From an uncultured delta proteobacterium (lineage in GTDB: Bacteria > Desulfobacterota > Binatia > DP-6), in the NCBI GenBank assembly GCA_963713495.1, contig CAVQLX010000006.1:59747-123746 (forward strand): a stretch of DNA of 64,000 nt, written 5' to 3'. Positions 5,843 through 15,987 of the stretch are shown here, piece after piece; the stretch's first letter is position 1, and the number at the start of each line of letters is the position of its first letter. The notes beneath the pieces are model-generated. The model was given only the letters and a program-made list of their open reading frames with translations, searched no databases and had not been told where the DNA came from. The position numbers and the translations under genes were made by a program.

Positions 5843-6800
5843 ATGCGCGCCACCTGGCTCGTTGCCTCGGGTGCCTTGCCCTCGCGACCTCTGCCGAGGC
5901 CAGGCGCCTCCACCTGCACAAGCCGCGGCACGGATTCCAGATGCGGATGACGTCGTTCGTCGTCCAGCCCGGCGCCGACCGCGAGGGCTGCGAGTACGCG
6001 GTCGCGCCGAACCGCCGGCCGATGGACGTCGCCGGCTTCGAGCTGAACGTCACGCCCGGGGCGCATCACTTCGTGCTGTGGGAGTACCTCGGCAAGGATC
6101 AGTCGAGCACCGACTTCTGGACCGGCATCCAGTATGCGCCGGGCTGCGTCGGCCTTGGCCCGCAGGACGCCTTCGTCAGCAACGCAAACCTGTTCGGCAT
6201 GGTGTCGTCGGCGACGAAGCGGATCCGTTTCCCGCCTGGCGTGGCGGTACGTCTCGAGCCTCACGCGATCGTCTACCCGAACCTCCATTTCACAACTACA
6301 CGACGGCTCCGATCGACCGCGCAGGCGGTGTTCAACCTCATTCCGGCGCGTCCGGGCAGCGTGAAGCACCACGCGCAGGCGTTCACCGTCGGCTCGTACA
6401 ACATCAACATCCCTGCGCAGGGCACCGCGTCGCTGACCGGCGAGTGGCGTGCCCCCGCCAACATGAACCTCGTGCAGATATCCACCCATCAGCACCATCG
6501 CGGGACGCGGATGACCGTCGACCAGATCGACGCCGCCGGCAACGACGTCGGAGAGCTGGTGACCTCGCCCGACTGGGAGCACCCGTCCGTGACCTGGTAC
6601 ACCACGGCGAAGCCGATCCGGCGCGGGCGAGGGCCTGCGCTTCACGTGCGAATGGAGCAATCCCGACGACCATCCGGTCCACTTCGGCGTGACGACCGAG
6701 GACGAGATGTGCTTCGTCGGCGGATACTTCTACCCGGATGACGATGGCGCCACGGTGTCGGGACCGGGCTGCGTGCCCCAGGGCTCTGGCCTGCGAGTGC
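5843..6800 (+). CDS. Copper type II ascorbate-dependent monooxygenase-like protein (PHM/DBH-like). Two or more frameshifts; the 3' end is uncertain.
   Basis: The main frame from 5941 carries GAHHFVLWEY ... LHFT ... STHQHHRG (CuH/CuM-like His clusters). After a frame change near 6630 it continues as GLRFTCEWSNPDDHPVHFGVTTEDEMCFVGGYFYPDD (TxDEMC Met-ligand motif). A signal-like N-terminus (MRA..LARCLGCLALATSAEA) is split between two frames at 5843-5900. Confidence 0.5.
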
Positions 6801-6890
6801 TTCGTCCCGAACGTCGCCACGACGCGCGCCGTAGCGCCGTTATCGACTCAATATCGCATCCGGCGGCGCCGTCTCCGGCGCTTCGGGCAA

Positions 6891-7739
6891 TCACTCCTTG
6901 TGCCCATTGTACGCGACGTCGCCGTGTGGACTGTAGGAGAGCGCCGGCGGCTGCTTCGTCAGCTCGAGATGGAACGAGGTGTCGTCACCGACGCTCTGGA
7001 TTCCTTCGCCGACCCGCGTCAGCTCGACCTCGACCGTGTCCAGTCGCTCGTAGTCGGAGGTGATGCGAACACGGCGCGGGCTCACCTTGACGACCGTGAC
7101 CGTCACGTCCGATCTGCTGCTGCCCTTGGCGTCGGACGTGACCTCGCCATGGTAGACGCCGCTCGCGAGATCGGCGAGATCGACATGGCCGGCGGCCGGG
7201 CCTGGTACCTGCGCCGGCCGTCGCAGGAACAACGCTGCGCCCAGCCCGAGCACGACCACCGCGAGGACGCCGCCGAGGAGGAGCCCGCGTCTCGACATCT
7301 GCCGCGGCGTCCGGGCCGTCGGCACCTGCCGTGACGAGGGCGCAGACGTCCGCCCGACTCGGTCGGCGATGCCCGCGCAGAGAGCCTGGAAGCCCTCGTG
7401 CGGCGTGTCGCCGGTCCAGTCGGCGAGGTCCACCGTCTGCTTGCGCCGGAACTCCAGCGGCAGCCTGACGCGGTCGATCGATGCGGGGACGAGGACGTCG
7501 CGCTCTGCCGCGGCCGCGGCTTCGTTCTTCACCCACTCCGACGTGACCGAGCTCCTGGACCAGAGCACGACGACGCTCCTGGCGGTCTCGAGCTCGCGCT
7601 CGATGGCCTCGTCGAACGCGTGGCCGGCGACGATCTTCCGATCCCACCACACCGACCAGCCGGCTGCCTCGAGCGACCGGGCAAGGGTGGCAGCTCGCTC
7701 GCGGTCCTCGTTCGCGTAGCTGAGAAAGACGTCCGTCAC
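6891..7739 (-). CDS. TIR-domain protein with one transmembrane helix and a ~110-aa extracytoplasmic C-terminal domain
   Basis: The N-terminus (M)TDVFLSYANEDRERAATLARSLEAAGWSVWWDRKIVAGHAFDEAIERELETARSVVVLWSRSSVTSEWVKNEAAAAAERDVLVP is a bacterial TIR (TIR_2) signature. The hydrophobic stretch RRGLLLGGVLAVVVLGLGAALFLRR follows, then a beta-rich tail. The start codon is GTG with no obvious Shine-Dalgarno. Confidence 0.7.
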   Translation of the reverse strand: MTDVFLSYANEDRERAATLARSLEAAGWSVWWDRKIVAGHAFDEAIERELETARSVVVLWSRSSVTSEWVKNEAAAAAERDVLVPASIDRVRLPLEFRRKQTVDLADWTGDTPHEGFQALCAGIADRVGRTSAPSSRQVPTARTPRQMSRRGLLLGGVLAVVVLGLGAALFLRRPAQVPGPAAGHVDLADLASGVYHGEVTSDAKGSSRSDVTVTVVKVSPRRVRITSDYERLDTVEVELTRVGEGIQSVGDDTSFHLELTKQPPALSYSPHGDVAYNGHKE

Positions 7740-7925
7740 GGCGCGCGATGTTCATCCGTCGCCGAGCCCGGCGCAAGGCACCGGAACGAACGGTAGGACC
7801 GTCGACCGACGTCGTGTGCTCCGCCTGCTGAGTCCGAGGGCGCACGAATCTCCTTGACCGTTCGGTTCGCCGCGCGAAGCTGACTCAAAGTGCTCGACTG
7901 ACGAGGCGAGCGCCGGGGCGGGCAG

Positions 7926-9093
7926 TCAGTGCCGCCGCGTGGCGACGTCCGGGTTCTCCGCGGCCAGCCCCCGGGCGAGCCAGCAACGCGCGCTCCGGTC
8001 GCCGCCGAGAGAGGCGTCGAAGAACGCCGCCGCGACGATGCGTGTCAGCTCGTGCTGGCGCTCGAAGTCGAGCGTCGCCAGCGGCGGCGCCGCCTGGCAG
8101 GGCGGTGAGCACGCGTCGCTCGCGACCCCCGCAGCGCGTCCACCCGGGAGCGGCGGGAAGAACGGGCTGGATCCGATCGCCCCGAGCAACGAGGCGCACC
8201 CGAGACGATCGATGTCCGCGGGCGTGCCGAGTGCACTGGCGAATCCCGTGAAGCCGAGGTGCGAGCCGCCGTGCAGCTCGACGAGCGTGCGTGGACCGCG
8301 CGCACGCCGGACGACGCGGAGCCCGTTCTCCTCGATCGGCGCGAGACCGTCGGTATCGCCTTGCAGGACCAGCAAGGGCAGGCTGCATGCCCTTGTAGAA
8401 TGCCCGCGTGAACGCGCACGAGAACGCCGGCGCGATCGGCAGGACGGCGCGGATGCGGCGGTCGCGGAGTTCCCGATGGTAGGTGAGCAGCATGACGGTC
8501 GCCGCGCCGAGGGAGAGACCGCTCGCGATGACCAGCGCGACGTCGACCGCACCCGCCAAGCCACCATCTCCGGCGAGGAGATGCTCCAGAACCGCACGCA
8601 GATCACCAGGCTGGTTCGCGAGATCGTCGGGTGTCGCACCGCACGGCGCACCGAGCTTGCCGAGCGGGAAGTCGACCGCGGCCACGATGTAGCCGCGACT
8701 GGCGAGATGCTCCGCGAGGTACGCTTCGCCTGTGCGACTGTCCTGCAGCGCATGCCCGTAGAGGACGAGCGGGTAGGGTGCCCCGCTGGTGTCGAGTGGA
8801 GCGTCGCGCAGCGCCGTACCGGTCGGCGGCGCCGCAGCGGGGTACCACACCTCGGTGTCGAGCGGACGAAAGGGCGTCCCCGCGAAGGAGCCGTTGAGCG
8901 GCGTGGCGCACGTCTGATCGATGAACCGCAGTGTCCGGACACCCACCGACCATGGCCCGCGGCTGGCGAAATCTGCCGTCTGGCGCGCACGCACGCCGCG
9001 ACACCCCGAGCGGGCGCTCGCGATCGTGGGGAGCGCCGTCGCGATGGAAAGTGCGGCGGCGAGAACCCGGATCACCTTGCTTAGGTGCGCCAT
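7926..9093 (-). CDS. Secreted alpha/beta hydrolase (PAF-acetylhydrolase/dienelactone-hydrolase-like), with one frameshift near 8400
   Basis: Signal peptide MAHLSKVIRVLAAALSIATALPTIASA. The G-x-S-x-G block ASGLSLGAA sits in the 9093-8400 frame; the C-terminal LLVLQGDTDGLAPIE...HGGSHLGF sits in the 8990-7926 frame. Confidence 0.6.
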
Positions 9094-9217
9094 GAGCAGC
9101 GGCGGGGGGACATAGCACGCATCGGCTGGAACAAGCACATCCGCGGCAGGTTCCTGCGCCACACCAGCAACGAGGTGCGGACGTGGACACAACGCTTCGG
9201 CTGCGCGAGGATCACGT

Positions 9218-9590
9218 ATGGTAACGCGATCGCTCCGCTTCGTGCCCATCCGTCTGGCGTGTCTGACCATCGCCGTCGTGGTGATCGCGTCATCCGTGCG
9301 ACCTCGCGTGGCGTCAGCAGCGTCTGCCAGCGCGGCGGACGCGGCGCTCGACCGCGCGCTGCGCGAGCTGGTGGCGATGCCCGGCGGCCCGCCGAGCGCG
9401 ACCGCGATCGTGCAGCGCGGCCCGGCGTTCGGCGTGCACACGGCCGGAATCGCCGTGGTGGGCGAACCCGACCAGCCGCGGAAGAGCGACCACATGCGCA
9501 TCGCGAGCGTCGCGAAGGCGTTCAGCGGAGCCGTCGCATTGTCGCTGGTCGACGCCGGCGTGTTCTCGCTCGACGATGACGATCAGCCTC
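9218..9590 (+). pseudogene. N-terminal remnant of a serine beta-lactamase/PBP-family hydrolase, truncated after ~125 aa
   Basis: Signal-like N-terminus, then the S-x-x-K block RIASVAKAFSGAVALSLVDAGVFSLDD. The remainder is Arg-rich noise overlapping the 9708-11198 gene on the opposite strand. Confidence 0.4.
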
Positions 9591-9707: not shown

Positions 9708-11198
9708 TCAGCGGTCGGGCTTGTGCCGACCGGAGTGTAGGCCGGAGAGGTCGCGCGCGACCATCGTGTTGCGATCGGACACGCTGCTGCCGAGCGCGAA
9801 CTGCGGCCAGAGGCCGGCGATCTCCTGCCGGCTGCGTTCGCTCCACGCCCGGGCGAGTCGGCTGCGCGTCTTGTAGAAGTTCAACGCGAAGCCGCCGGTG
9901 TACAGCCGCAGGAGGGAGAAGCCGCCGGGATACTCCTTGCCCGCGGCGATCTCCTGCATCGTGACCCCGGGTGCGATCGGGCTGATCGTGCGCTTGTTGC
10001 GGTGCGTGTGGCCCGCGTGATGCAGGAACAGTCCGGGAGTCTGCGCGTAGTCGTCCAGGATCGTCGCCACCTGTCCGACCTCGAGCGCGTTGCTCGGCGT
10101 GATGGGGAACGGCGACTTCTCGACGATCAGGGGATGGTGGCCGAACACGATGGTCGGCTGGTCGCGCTCCTTGGCGAGCTCGGCGCGGAACCAGGCGAGC
10201 TGTTCGGTGGAGAGCGCGCCGGCATCGTTGCCCCGGCCGGGCTTGTCGTAGGTGTCGATCCCGATGACCCGGAGGCCCCGGAGCTCGCGGCTGAAGTAGG
10301 TCGGCTCGTCTCCGGGGAAGAAGTGATCGTGGAAGCAGTCGTTGCCCTGCCACTGGCCGATGCGACACGCGGCATACGCCTCACCGGTATGCGCGCGATC
10401 GTGATTGCCGCGCGTGACGAAGTAGTCGCGGCGATACTTGCCGAATCGTCTGAGCAGCTTCCCCGCCTTGCTGAGATCGACCGGCGCGGCCTCGGCGGTG
10501 ATGTCGCCGGCGGCCAGCAGGAACGACGCGCCGAGCGCGCTCGCGTCCTCGACGAGTGACTTGAGCATCACCTCCGGGTAGGGCGGCAGGCCGGGAGCCT
10601 GCTGGATCCCGGGGATGCTCGAGCCGCCGAGGAGCCCGGCCGTCGTCTCACCCATGTGCAGGTCGTTGCACAGCACGATGGAGAAGAGGAATCGCCCCGG
10701 CGGCGGCTCGGGAACGGTGAAGCTGTACGGACCGCCGGTGGTCAGGCCGAAGTCGGAGGTGCCGACCGCGTTGCCGCTGATGAGCGTGAACGGCGTCGGA
10801 GGGACCGGGATGTCGTTCGACCGGGCCTGGTAGTAGTACGTCTCTCCCGGCTCGAGCCCGTTGAGCTCGACGTAGTGATACGGCGTGTCGCGCGAGCGAT
10901 CACCGGCCACCCGGTTCAGCCGCTGCGGGTCGGTTCCCCAGTAGACGACGCCGTCGGCCGGAGCGGGCTCCATCCGACCGAGGCCGTCGTCGGTCCCCGT
11001 GTATCCCGTGTACCAGGTGATGATCGCCCGGTCTTCGGTGAGAGTCACCAGCTCGAGGTTCACCGGCGACACGGCGCCCTTGCGGCTGGCTGCGGCGGCG
11101 ACCCCGTTGTCGAACAGGCGGCGAGCGAAGAACGGTGAGGCCGCGGCTACGGCGGTCCACCGCAGAAAGTCCCGTCGGGTGAAGTCACAACCAGGCAC
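9708..11198 (-). CDS. Tat-secreted metallophosphoesterase (purple-acid-phosphatase-like, with an N-terminal FN3-like domain)
   Basis: Twin-arginine motif MPGCDFTRRDFLRWTAVAAASPFFA. Calcineurin-like motifs GDITAE, GNHD, GHHPL and GHTH are present. Confidence 0.8.
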   Translation of the reverse strand: MPGCDFTRRDFLRWTAVAAASPFFARRLFDNGVAAAASRKGAVSPVNLELVTLTEDRAIITWYTGYTGTDDGLGRMEPAPADGVVYWGTDPQRLNRVAGDRSRDTPYHYVELNGLEPGETYYYQARSNDIPVPPTPFTLISGNAVGTSDFGLTTGGPYSFTVPEPPPGRFLFSIVLCNDLHMGETTAGLLGGSSIPGIQQAPGLPPYPEVMLKSLVEDASALGASFLLAAGDITAEAAPVDLSKAGKLLRRFGKYRRDYFVTRGNHDRAHTGEAYAACRIGQWQGNDCFHDHFFPGDEPTYFSRELRGLRVIGIDTYDKPGRGNDAGALSTEQLAWFRAELAKERDQPTIVFGHHPLIVEKSPFPITPSNALEVGQVATILDDYAQTPGLFLHHAGHTHRNKRTISPIAPGVTMQEIAAGKEYPGGFSLLRLYTGGFALNFYKTRSRLARAWSERSRQEIAGLWPQFALGSSVSDRNTMVARDLSGLHSGRHKPDR

Positions 11199-12146: not shown

Positions 12147-13115
12147 TCACTCGAGGAGCCGCATGTGTCCCTCGTCGTTCAGCGTCTTCGCGAACGACGG
12201 CTCGTACGCGAGCTCCGGCGCCTGGCGGACCAACCGGTCGAGAGCCTGCGCATCCTGTCCGACCAGCACGCGCCAGGTGTCGGTGCGGACGCCCTCGAGG
12301 ATCGTCGACGCCGCCTGCGCCGCCGAGGTCGGTGCATGATCGCGAAAGGCGAGCGCCATCTGGTGCATCGCGGCGCGAAGCTGGTCGTCGGTCATGGCAT
12401 CCGCCGGGAGGCCGCGCCGGACCAGCATCGCACGGATCGTCGCGACGTCCTCGGCCGATGCGGACAGCGCATCGGCTTTGCCGAGCACCTTGGGCGAGTT
12501 GAGCAGGATCGACGTCCCGACGTGTCCGGGCATGACCAGCACGGCCTTCACGTGCGGGGCGTTCAGCCGCAGGTCGGTGATCAGGGCCTCGGTGAACCCC
12601 TTCACGGCGAACTTGGCGCTGCTGTACGCCGTGTGCGACACGCTCGGCCCGAGCGACGCCCAGAATCCGTTCACGCTGCTGGTGTTGATGATGCAGCCCT
12701 CGTCGCTGGCGACGAGCAAGGGCAAGAAGGCCCGCGCACAGTAGTACACGCCGGACCAGCAGACGTTGAACGTGCGCTCCCACTCGGCGCGGTCGCCGTT
12801 CACGAAGCTCCCGCCTCCGCCGATCCCGGCGTTGTTGAAGAGCAGGTTGATGTGCTTGGTCGCGTGCGCCGTCACGACCGCGTCGCGAAACGCCAGCACC
12901 TGGGCCTCGACGGACACGTCGCACGCGTGGGTCGTGACCCGTGCGCCGGCGCAGGCCACGCCTTCGGCCAGACGCTTCGTCTCGCTCATGTTCTCGGTCG
13001 AGACGTCGCAGATCGCCACGTGACAACCCTCGGCGGCGAGCTGCGTGGTGAGCTCGCGTCCCATTCCCGTGCCGCCGCCGGTGACGACGGCCAGTTTCCC
13101 GCGGAAGGTCTTCAT
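12147..13115 (-). CDS. Short-chain dehydrogenase/reductase (SDR) family oxidoreductase
   Basis: [21 protein letters not shown] (TGxxxGxG) ... NNAG ... S-Y-K triad region YSSAKFAV. Confidence 0.8.
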
Positions 13116-13170
13116 GCTTGCCGGCACATAGCGGGCCCTGCGCGTCGCTGTCCAGTCGCGCAGGTCGGTC

Positions 13171-14637
13171 CTAGGTGACACGTCCCGCAGCGCGATCCCC
13201 AGCGCATCGGCGACGCCTTCGCCGTAGGCGGGATCGGCCTGGGTGCAGTTGGCGATGTGACGCCGCTGGATCGCCTCCGGCGCACCGTTGATGGCCCGCG
13301 CGGTGTTCTCGAACAGGGCCTGCTGCTGTTCCGCGCGTCATCAGGCGGAACAGGTTGCCGGGCTGCGAATAGTAGTCGCGTCGTCCTCGCGGTAGTTGCA
13401 ACGATCGGCACCGCCCGCCACCGCCGAGCGCCGGCTCGCGGTAGGCGGGCTGCTCCTGCCACCCGCCGTAGCTGTTCGGCTCGTTGCCCAGCGTGCCGCC
13501 CTGGTTGCCGTCGACGCGCATCGCACCGTCGCGGTGGTAGCTGTTCACCGGGCACCGCGCGTGCGTTCACCGGGATCTGATGGTGGTTGACCCCGAGGCG
13601 GTACCGCTGCGCGTCGCCGTAGCGAGAACAGCCGACCCTGCAGCATCTTGTCGGGCGAGAAACCGATGCCCGGGCACGACGTTGGCCGGGTTGAAGGCGG
13701 CCTGCTCGACCTCGGCGAAGTAGTTGTCGGGATTGCGGTTGAGCTCCCACTCGCCGACCTCGATCAGCGGGTAGTCCTTCTGCGGCCACACCTTGGTGAG
13801 GTCGAACGGGTGGTACGGGACCTTCGCGGCCTCGGCCTCGGGCATGATCTGGACGTACAGCTTCCACTTCGGGAAGTCGCCGCGCTCGATGCTCTCGTAC
13901 AGATCGCGCTGGTGGCTCTCGCGGTCCTTGCCGATGAGCGCCTCGGCCTCGGCGTCGGTGAGGTTCTTGATGCCCTGCTGCGACGTGAAGTGGAACTTGA
14001 CCCAGAAGCGCTCGCCCTTCGCGTTGATGAAGCTGAAGGTGTGCGACGCCGAAGCCGTGCATGTGGCGGTACGAAGCCGGGAATGCCGCGGTCGGACATG
14101 ACGATCGTGACCTGGTGCAGCGACTCGGGCAGCTTGGTCCAGAAGTCCCAGTTGTTCTCGGCGCTGCGCAGGTTGGTGCGCGGGTCGCGCTTCACCGCGT
14201 GGTTGAGGTCGGGGAACTTCAGCGGGTCGCGGAAGAAGAAGACCGGGGTGTTGTTGCCGACGAGGTCCCAGTTGCCCTCCTCGGTGTAGAACTTCACCGC
14301 GAAGCCACGGATGTCCCGCTCGGCGTCGGCCGCACCGCGTTCGCCCGCGACGGTGGAGAAGCGAGCGAACATCTCCGTCTTCTTGCCGACCTGCGGAGAA
14401 GATGCTTCGCCCAGGTGTAGCGCGTGATGTCGTTGGTGACGGTGAAGGTCCCGTAGGCGCCGGAACCCTTGGCGTGCATCCGACGCTCCGGGATGACCTC
14501 GCGGTCGAAGTGCGCGAGCTTCTCCAGGAACCAGACGTCCTGCAGCAGCATCGGGCCCGGGGGCCGGCGGTGAGCACGTTCTGGTTGTCGACCACGGGGC
14601 AGCCGACGCTCGTGGTCAGCTTCTTCTTCTCGCCCAT
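13171..14637 (-). CDS. katA: Monofunctional haem catalase (clade 3, KatA-like), interrupted by four or more single-base frameshifts
   Basis: Consecutive catalase blocks lie in different frames: [29 protein letters not shown] / [39 protein letters not shown] / [43 protein letters not shown] / [19 protein letters not shown]...[18 protein letters not shown] / [14 protein letters not shown] / [17 protein letters not shown]. Each piece is near-consensus. Confidence 0.85.
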
Positions 14638-14679
14638 GTGACTCTCCTCTCGAGCGACGCGATTTCGGTCCTGCGCCGA

Positions 14680-15987
14680 TCAGCCTGGAAGCGGACCGGT
14701 GGCGCGACCGGCGCGCGTGTCCGCGGGGATGGCGGGAAGCTGCATCCTGCGCCGTCCGAGGATGAGCAGCCGCTCGAGCCACGTGAGATCGTTCGGCGGG
14801 ACCTTGGGAATGACGTGGTACCGGACGCGAACCTCCCCGTCGGCCTCGGTGAGCTCGAAGTAGTTGAGCTGGTATGACGGGACGTAGACACCGGGGAGGC
14901 GGCCGATCCGGACCGGCACGTAGTCGAGCCGTTTGAGCCAGGTCCCCGTGTTGATCACGTAGCGCCCGTCGACCTCGCGCAGGGACGGGATGTGCGTGTG
15001 CCCGTACACGAACAGGACCACCGACGGATCCGCGGCGAAGATCTCCCTGGCGGCCGCGATGTACTGGGCGTCCTTCTCGAGATGCAGATTCTCACCCCTG
15101 CTCACCCCGTAGCGGGCGATCGCCGCGCGCGTGTCCCGCAGCAGGAAGTACAGCGGCACGGACAGGAGCAGCAGGGTGGCGATGACTGTGCTGTTCACGA
15201 ACTGGACCAGGTCGATGAGGCGACCGGGGAAGCCCAGGATCGGCTGCAGGTCGATGTCGAAGACGGGTGTTTGCCGCCCGAGCAGGCGCTCGAGCGTCCG
15301 GATGCCGAAGACGACCGCGCTCGCGGAGAAGAGCAGGAGGAAGGGAAGCAGGCCCCAGCGGAGGACCGGCGCCATCTCCTTGTAGAAGTGGTTCGACAGC
15401 GCCCAGAACGGGATGTCCTCGTTCGGATACACCGACTCCACGTCGTCGAGCCATCGGGCCTTCGCGCGCTCGGCGCTCCGCCCGGCCGCGGCGACGACGC
15501 CGCTCGTGATGAAGTACCCGAGCGGGAGGCCGTAGCGGTTGCCGAAGTCGGGGAAGCGATTGAAGGCGTCGTACTGATTGCCGTGCTCGATCCAGACCGT
15601 GTGGCCCGCGATCGTCCGGGTGATGTGCACCACGGGCTCGAGGTGGATGTTGTATCGCGCGAGCTCGGTTCGGTACGCCGGCACGCAGGCCAGGTCGTAG
15701 TCGTGGTTTCCGGGCAGCAGCGTGATCGTCACGCGCTCGCCGGTCTCGCGAAACTGGCGGAACAGCGCGGGACACATGGCGGCGATTCGCTCCAGCTTGG
15801 ACGGACCCTCGCGATCGGTCAGCTCCCAGAATCCGAAGGCATCGCCCACGATGATGAGCTCGGCGGGCTGGGGCCCGACGGCGATCTCCGCGAGGAAGGC
15901 GACGAGCTCAGGCTCGAAGTCGCAGCGAGCGAGTCCCCCGTCGCCTCCGATGTGCAGGTCACTGATGAGGTAGTAGGTCGTCGCCAT
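14680..15987 (-). CDS. Membrane-associated metallophosphoesterase (calcineurin-like)
   Basis: Starts [18 protein letters not shown]; motifs GDAFGFWE and LPGNHD; central hydrophobic segments ([33 protein letters not shown]); C-terminal YGHTH. Confidence 0.75.

Follow-up and report, generated by a model that had tools for sequence, protein, structure and literature searches.

A TIR domain, a single transmembrane helix and an exported beta-barrel joined in one bacterial protein: architecture of a candidate receptor-like family

Background

Can a bacterial TIR (Toll/interleukin-1 receptor) enzyme be wired, within a single protein, to a domain lying outside the cytoplasm? The question is raised by a gene on a 64,000-nucleotide stretch of DNA, hereafter the window, from an uncultured delta proteobacterium (Binatia, DP-6; assembly GCA_963713495.1, contig CAVQLX010000006.1, positions 59,747 to 123,746), which encodes a 282-residue protein composed of an N-terminal TIR domain, one transmembrane (TM) helix and a beta-barrel. 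TIR domains that cleave NAD+ (NADases) form their active sites only on self-association, as in SARM1, AbTir filaments, plant TIRs and the TIR-STING and TIR-SAVED filaments. The bacterial TIR systems that we know of sense intracellular events (phage proteins, nucleic acids and second messengers).

A preliminary description of the locus, made from the letters alone, had proposed a transmembrane arrangement running from an outer sensor to an inner NADase. We report here that the gene belongs to a widespread family in which one conserved TIR-TM module carries different outer domains, and we weigh what such proteins may do.

The gene and its three-part product

The features of the gene are as follows.

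6891..7739, minus strand: complete coding sequence, 282 amino acids, with a GTG start at 7739 and a TGA stop at 6891-6893; TIR, single TM helix and beta-barrel
7347..7739, minus strand: TIR domain, predicted cytoplasmic, residues 1-131, assigned by Pfam TIR_2, AlphaFold2 (AF2), Foldseek and family identity
7521..7535, minus strand: WxxxE motif, W69-V-K-N-E73, with E73 (7521-7523) as predicted catalytic glutamate
7287..7346, minus strand: juxtamembrane linker on the predicted cytoplasmic side, residues 132-151, rich in Pro, Ser and Arg and predicted to be disordered (pLDDT <50)
7224..7286, minus strand: single TM helix, about residues 152-172, a type II signal-anchor by hydropathy and conserved position
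7182..7223, minus strand: predicted periplasmic tether, residues 173-186, with pLDDT <50 up to residue 184
6894..7181, minus strand: eight-stranded up-and-down beta-barrel, residues 187-282, an uncharacterised domain family of ~95 residues
7107..7136, minus strand: SDx(K/R)GSSRSD motif, residues 202-211, which runs from the last part of strand 1 through the beta1-beta2 hairpin loop into the first part of strand 2

Four codons 5' of the GTG start there is an in-frame TGA, and the resulting N-terminus, (M)TDVFLSY, agrees with the MTDVF or MADVF starts of homologues. The window has a GC content of ~69%, at which long chance open reading frames (ORFs) are common, and it contains many; the hydrolase-like and catalase-like genes nearby are broken across frames. 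A chance ORF, or a pseudogene in a high-GC assembly with frameshifted genes, would be an alternative to a real gene. It is refuted by the family itself, and we leave it practically no probability: the frame is full-length and uninterrupted, four independent metagenome proteins (P0001-P0004) are 98-99% identical to its product, hundreds of homologues are colinear with it, and its TIR and barrel parts are both modelled with confident folds. In fact, at least 925 database proteins match the protein, and nearly all the best listed ones cover 94-100% of it at lengths of ~280-300 amino acids, so that the gene can be taken as real despite the base composition.

Judged by sequence, the N-terminal domain is an unremarkable TIR_2 superfamily domain that lies closest to enzymes of the AbTir type. 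Pfam TIR_2 (PF13676) matches residues 4-120 with 89 bits against a cut-off of 28 (E 4.4e-25) and over profile positions 1-121 of 122, and the AF2 model of residues 1-131 shows flavodoxin-like alternating strands and helices, with pLDDT mostly >90 and lower in the BB-loop region (35-38). Foldseek relates the model with probability 1.0 to the TIRs of SPARTA, SARM1, AbTir, TLR (TLR15) and MyD88, at target-normalised TM-scores of 0.6-0.85. A profile of 25 family members finds AbTir, BtTir and PdTIR as the nearest solved relatives by sequence (E 9e-8 to 8e-7). The TIR domain of about 130 residues read at this place in the preliminary description is therefore confirmed, and so is the presence of the catalytic glutamate, whose position had been left to an alignment: E73, within S-E-W-V-K-N-E, is aligned with the Glu of the AbTir WTNYE motif (7uwg/8g83), which we take to be the catalytic E208. 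W69 and E73 are invariant in the family alignment (A1). The motif S.W...E occurs in 79/79 genome homologues and in 116 of the 120 top database homologues, the other four being offsets of the search window that come from N-terminal extensions or truncations. The TIR domain probably cleaves NAD+.

Membrane topology was assigned from hydropathy and charge. The segment LLLGGVLAVVVLGLGAALFL, with a Kyte-Doolittle mean of 2.63 over residues 153-171, is the sole strongly hydrophobic stretch of the protein, and most of the 79 genome homologues possess one comparable segment at about residues 145-190; the single helix previously proposed is thus found, at the same position across the family. In the Pfam search this helix gave a weak match to the ErbB1 TM model. 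Four Lys or Arg residues of the linker lie within 15 residues of the helix, and across the family the mean number of Lys and Arg within that distance is 3.6 on the TIR side versus 1.8 on the C-terminal side, the TIR side being higher in 52 of 67 proteins. Since no signal peptide precedes the TIR domain and positive charge is biased in this way, an N-in, type II topology is the one to be expected. These features support an inner-membrane protein with a cytoplasmic TIR and a periplasmic tail, the orientation that had been suggested before; signal peptides on stand-alone homologues of the tail, described below, agree with it. This topology would place the TIR where its substrate, NAD+, is. The periplasmic tether varies in length, with gaps of up to ~25 residues in A1.

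The periplasmic barrel

The tail, formerly described as beta-rich, is predicted to be an eight-stranded barrel. Residues 181-282, modelled alone with 57 aligned sequences, form a short helix and then eight antiparallel strands (pLDDT 94.8, pTM 0.85). The model is similar to calycin-like barrels that bind ligands (BT_2261, the Cap15 receptor barrel, PliC and avidins); further likenesses are to the C-terminal barrels of PBP-like enzymes (2qmi, 1ei5) and to OmpW-type and designed barrels, and the sequence identity to all these structural matches is 1-18%. No significant viral fold match was obtained for the barrel. When 39 members were searched against Pfam, none had a match even at E up to 1; NCBIfam and PDB sequences likewise gave no match at permissive thresholds, and a full scan of 1.84 billion cluster representatives returned only 160 relatives. 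By these searches the barrel is a new secreted domain family without a database model.

The same barrel also occurs on its own. A signal-peptide-like N-terminus is present in 55 of the 75 short homologues (110-175 aa), where the domain begins, with PDLAD, a few residues past the hydrophobic region, and four of the 75 have lipoboxes; a short signal peptide followed by the barrel is encoded at 70 of 80 metagenome loci, in some cases with an RRxFL Tat-like motif. Because the barrel alone stands behind Sec, lipoprotein or Tat-like signal peptides, its location in the membrane-anchored proteins is expected to be periplasmic. The stand-alone forms of soil and rhizosphere metagenomes (L084-L163) are secreted proteins of ~130 residues, signal peptide plus barrel, for which no Pfam or NCBIfam model exists. 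Their neighbouring genes are shared only within one closely related clade (10/45 loci).

Several other contexts of the barrel were recorded. P0121 is a signal peptide followed by two tandem barrels, and P0186 (L161 4142-5318) joins a signal peptide, a caspase and the barrel, the caspase weakly matching the EACC1-associated type. P0125, N-terminally incomplete, is composed of a TM helix, the barrel and a peptidoglycan amidase of AmpD/PGRP type, while P0133 and P0141 are TIR-TM proteins with additional periplasmic modules. From such sequences, the barrel possibly acts near the cell wall.

Conservation within the barrel is highest in and around two loops. The best conserved motif is SDx(K/R)GSSRSD, which is kept in the stand-alone barrels as well and in which D203, G206, S208, S210 and D211 are invariant or nearly so (A1). 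These five, with D229, Y230 and R232, are the top conserved residues of the domain and lie in or beside the beta1-beta2 and beta3-beta4 loops. From the strand order in the model, the conserved loops would face away from the membrane, and the SDx(K/R)GSSRSD loop is a candidate ligand-contact site.

Distribution of the family and exchange of outer domains

The TIR-TM-barrel architecture is found in metagenome-assembled genomes (MAGs) labelled Binatia or "delta proteobacterium", in Acidobacteriota and Verrucomicrobiia and in cultured Proteobacteria, namely Pseudomonas akapageensis, Zoogloea oleivorans, Hydrogenophaga sp. Root209, Accumulibacter and Defluviicoccus vanus; Mesorhizobium is among the database matches. 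In one-genome-per-species data, 549 loci with the same TIR type were confirmed. Public annotation of the homologues is limited to "TIR domain-containing" or hypothetical.

Architectures and outer domains were counted on 79 retrieved genome loci. The barrel is present in 39 of them; in the remainder the same TIR-TM module is joined to outer domains of at least 17 other sequence classes. Most of these classes lack a Pfam match, one has TPRs, and a related protein has an FGE-sulfatase/C-type-lectin-like domain. One MAG encodes both a barrel-type protein and a paralogue with a different ectodomain (L006, L078). Another MAG has two apparently identical TIR-TM-barrel copies on different contigs (L015, L016). 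Compared with the window protein, homologues have a median identity of 74% in the TIR and 55% in the barrel but only 21% in the linker and TM helix, and the TIR remains 46-76% identical (best segment) even across different outer domains. A conserved inner module joined to variable outer modules is the layout by which receptor families are built.

The same data bear on a different function, that of a tethered latent toxin, in which the anchor and the barrel would serve only to separate or localise the TIR, for instance at the cell wall, and proteolytic release or membrane damage would activate it. A precedent is the amoeba protein TirC of Dictyostelium, a TIR NADase of bacterial origin held at the membrane by a single helix, whose tethering controls its toxicity: it is tolerated only when membrane-tethered and is toxic without the helix (PMC13142454). 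TirC differs from the window protein in that its helix is N-terminal, it has no outer domain, it is eukaryotic and it derives from the TIR-STING lineage (PMC13142454). The tethers that flank the helix of the window protein are predicted to be disordered and would be accessible to proteases, and in P0125 the barrel co-occurs with a cell-wall enzyme. Nevertheless, if the barrel were an anchor and nothing more, there would be no need for a polar loop motif that is strongly conserved and common to soluble secreted homologues, nor would one expect the exchange of outer domains among at least 17 classes on one TIR-TM module; we therefore regard the latent toxin as rather unlikely.

Genomic context and tests for known defence systems

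All-versus-all clustering of six-frame ORFs from 44 homologous loci, the wider check of neighbourhoods that had been proposed for this gene, revealed no conserved partner. No neighbour cluster was shared by more than 8/44 loci, the next best occurring in 7/44, and both reflect lineage synteny; what else is shared is only the TIR gene itself and its shadow frames. In the absence of any conserved neighbour across these loci, the TIR-TM-barrel gene would act alone or with unlinked partners. Full-length homologues were absent from 72,556 plasmids, and homologues of any kind from 50,697 phages.

Nine contexts were annotated with Pfam; three contain conflict-type genes (L002, L167 and, in part, L165) and six are metabolic. 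The Mesorhizobium locus L002 (1-16942) encodes an 867-aa TIR protein, a TIR-iSTAND protein with an AAA_5 ATPase, SLATT/DUF4231, TPR-S, a patatin and a peptidoglycan-binding muramidase, surroundings that look like a conflict-system island. L167 holds an orthologue 80% identical to the window protein, directly followed by a CAP12-PCTIR_TIR gene, with a 475-aa TIR_2 protein nearby (7931-8878, 12999-14426); the window lacks both. SduA_C and patatin occur in the context of L165. As a whole, genomic context gives weak support to a role in defence.

Known TIR-based systems were also considered. PADLOC and NCBIfam yielded partial matches restricted to the TIR region and far below the family cut-offs: the NCBIfam model Thoeris_type3_ThcB4 requires 220 bits and gives 31, and the PADLOC ThsB models match the first ~80 residues only (ThsB1, E 1.6e-7). 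The match to Pfam ThsB_TIR is marginal, at 23 bits versus a cut-off of 21.2. Membership in Thoeris was rejected: the NCBIfam ThsB model is below threshold, and ThsA, either SIR2-SLOG or Macro-TM, neither adjoins the gene in the window nor is conserved in the 44 loci. A TIR effector of CBASS (cyclic-oligonucleotide-based antiphage signalling system) or Pycsar was rejected as well, as the SAVED_TIR and Effector models match the TIR region only, the protein has no SAVED, STING or cNMP-binding domain, and no cyclase is adjacent. In each case membership fails because the defining partner genes are absent.

A dispersed Thoeris-like system, in which the TIR would make a messenger of the cyclic ADP-ribose type for an effector encoded elsewhere, is a related possibility. 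TIRs of the AbTir type reportedly make cyclic ADP-ribose isomers (Manik et al. 2022), and this, the weak ThsB-type matches just given, together with the CAP12-PCTIR_TIR gene and the further TIR gene beside the L167 orthologue, speak for it. The gap between 31 and 220 bits and the lack of ThsA, SIR2-SLOG or Macro-TM, both in the window and as a conserved gene beside homologues, speak against it, and we hold such a system to be improbable.

The other alternative on which these results bear is a non-enzymatic scaffold, that is, a TIR acting as an adaptor that recruits an unlinked cytoplasmic partner, as in TLR and MyD88, without cleaving NAD+. The unusually high conservation of the TIR across phyla, also behind different outer domains, would fit an interaction surface, and the fold matches the TIRs of MyD88, MAL and TLRs too. 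Against this, the glutamate of WxxxE is strictly kept, the nearest solved sequence relatives, AbTir and BtTir, are enzymes, and no linked partner gene was found; a scaffold appears about as improbable as a dispersed Thoeris-like system, if not slightly more so.

Comparison with known proteins

AbTir, BtTir and PdTIR (7uwg, 7uxu, 7uxr, 3h16) share with the window protein the fold, the DxFISY strand, the VWxD motif and the WxxxE glutamate, and their sequences align with it over residues 3-78 only. They are soluble proteins that end in the TIR, which is preceded by a coiled-coil or another region, whereas in the window protein the TIR is N-terminal and is followed by the TM helix and the barrel. 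ThsB of Thoeris is also a TIR protein, related by a weak model match over the first ~80 residues; known ThsB proteins are soluble and, unlike them, the window protein is anchored, and it has no adjacent ThsA.

The barrel has its own set of relatives by structure. The barrel of Cap15, a CBASS membrane effector (7n34), is no more than 11% identical in sequence; it lies in the cytoplasm, where it senses cyclic dinucleotides from an adjacent cyclase, whereas the window barrel appears to be exported and has no linked cyclase. Periplasmic calycin-like barrels (BT_2261, putatively lipid-binding, 3h3i; PliC, 4mir and 3oe3; D-aminopeptidases, 1ei5 and 2qmi) match in their eight antiparallel up-and-down strands, with identities of 4-14% and no relation at the level of sequence. 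The motifs SDxKGSSRSD and SDYxRL are specific to the barrel family of the window protein.

In design, the closest likeness is to Toll-like and IL-1 receptors, which follow the same logic of an outer ligand-binding domain, one TM helix and a cytoplasmic TIR, with varied outer domains. Those receptors are type I proteins with leucine-rich-repeat (LRR) or immunoglobulin (Ig) ectodomains and a C-terminal TIR, whereas the window protein is inverted (type II) and its barrel has no LRR or Ig matches; moreover, its retained glutamate suggests an enzymatic output, in contrast to the adaptor output of Toll-like receptors. The likeness is thus an analogy of design, with homology limited to the TIR fold, and the protein is not a member of that receptor family.

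In the literature searchable as full text, outside which most subscription journals lie, no description was found of a bacterial receptor made of TIR, single helix and periplasmic domain. What is mentioned, in a TIR survey (PMC7075850), papers of the Aravind group on conflict systems (PMC7159879, PMC8195603), a DGR paper (PMC10907252) and Rousset et al. (PMC9122126), are fusions of TIR to lectin-like FGS/NPCBM domains and TIR proteins with separate membrane proteins. The AC1 system of a P2-like phage was considered as a case of the same architecture and set aside: it consists of a TIR protein plus separate membrane proteins.

Proposed mechanism

The sensor-to-NADase reading of the preliminary description is supported by the architecture, the orientation and the conserved glutamate; that binding outside switches the NADase on, and that this serves against phages, are further steps that we infer. 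In the scheme that we propose, the protein would work by itself in the manner of a receptor: a ligand outside would cluster it, and clustering would switch on NAD+ cleavage inside. The barrel would bind some conserved molecule of the periplasm or derived from the envelope, which could be a lipid, a fragment of the cell wall or a small hydrophobic compound, and binding would gather several copies of the protein in the membrane. Forced proximity would bring the TIR domains to self-associate and build the active site, upon which Glu73 would cleave NAD+; the outcome would be either NAD+ depletion or an ADP-ribose-derived signal. The scheme supposes an active enzyme, its activation by clustering, a ligand of the kind just named and a role that may be defence or the sensing of envelope damage or of other cells; to the full outside-in scheme we would give even chances.

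Two links tie the scheme to the data. Tethers that are disordered and of variable length, on both sides of a TM helix that is not conserved, fit activation by proximity better than a rigid conformational relay. In addition, a barrel that is conserved across phyla and also exists in a soluble secreted form suggests that the ligand is itself conserved (for example a component of the envelope or the cell wall, or else a lipid or a metabolite); a phage protein, which would evolve fast, is the less probable candidate.

Some points weigh against the scheme or against its application to phages. Phage sensors typically evolve fast, whereas the barrel is well conserved, and the very high conservation of the TIR could reflect binding to a conserved partner protein. 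The context of homologues consists mostly of metabolic genes, with only L002, L167 and, partly, L165 beside conflict genes; given the lack of full-length copies on plasmids or phages, an anti-phage role is not indicated by the usual criteria, and we assign it lower odds than the outside-in scheme in general.

The surroundings of the gene in the window

The region upstream of the TIR gene is a further feature of the locus.

7740..7925, minus strand: upstream intergenic region of ~186 nt, from the stop of the hydrolase frame (7926) to the TIR start

No sigma-70-like promoter was found in this region, a result that is uninformative for a high-GC host. The neighbours of the TIR gene in the window are a sulfatase, a cupin, an ORF without known function, an alpha/beta-hydrolase-like gene, a phosphoesterase with a Tat signal and an SDR (short-chain dehydrogenase/reductase). 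The absence of a ThsA, SIR2 or Macro partner, already remarked in the preliminary description, was confirmed by this check of the neighbours and extends to Macro-TM and cyclase partners near the gene; the 64-kb window contains no second TIR or barrel gene. These surroundings are not a defence island.

The preliminary description had placed the gene immediately downstream of an alpha/beta hydrolase on the same strand. Strand, upstream position and resemblance to alpha/beta hydrolases hold; the match is a weak one, to PAF-AH_p_II, the gene is split over two overlapping frames (7885-9501 and 7926-8990, both minus) and the stop of the latter lies ~186 nt upstream of the TIR start. It is either a frameshifted pseudogene or the product of an assembly indel. 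A second gene, presumably a catalase from motifs recognised in its translations, lies at 13567-14782 (minus) in three frames (ORFs 13567-14637, 13764-14372 and 14294-14782). Together the two split genes suggest indel errors typical of long-read assemblies, so that the boundaries of other ORFs in the window need caution.

On the plus strand, an ORF at 5941-6741 without a Pfam match seems to be continued in a second frame at 6689-7063, whose 3' end overlaps the 3' end of the convergent TIR gene. A guess that the ORF at 5941-6741 encodes a copper monooxygenase is unsupported by Pfam. At 9708-11198 (minus) a 496-aa metallophosphoesterase of the purple-acid-phosphatase-like kind carries a Tat signal; with the sulfatase and the putatively secreted hydrolase, it makes the region rich in exported hydrolytic enzymes.

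Conclusions

The unusual part of this locus is the architecture, which is solid and widespread, while the function we infer entirely. A wider reading takes the family as a prokaryotic counterpart of Toll-like receptors, in which interchangeable periplasmic domains sense cues from outside and clustering induces NAD+ cleavage by the TIR inside; we put it forward as a tentative and rather doubtful possibility. The interchangeable domains could then be the barrel, TPR, lectin-like and amidase/PGRP-like modules, and the cues might be cell-wall fragments, damage to the envelope by phages or competitors, or molecules derived from neighbours.

If this reading is true, it would be, to our knowledge, the first outside-in TIR signalling pathway in bacteria: through its link with a periplasmic domain, the TIR enzyme would widen TIR signalling to cues beyond the cytoplasm, and the protein would offer a one-gene model for the clustering-driven switch-on of a TIR NADase. 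The existence of cultured carriers makes the receptor hypothesis directly testable. Finally, the pairing of one TIR-TM cassette with many outer domains is relevant to the possible origin of the receptor-plus-TIR design in animal innate immunity.

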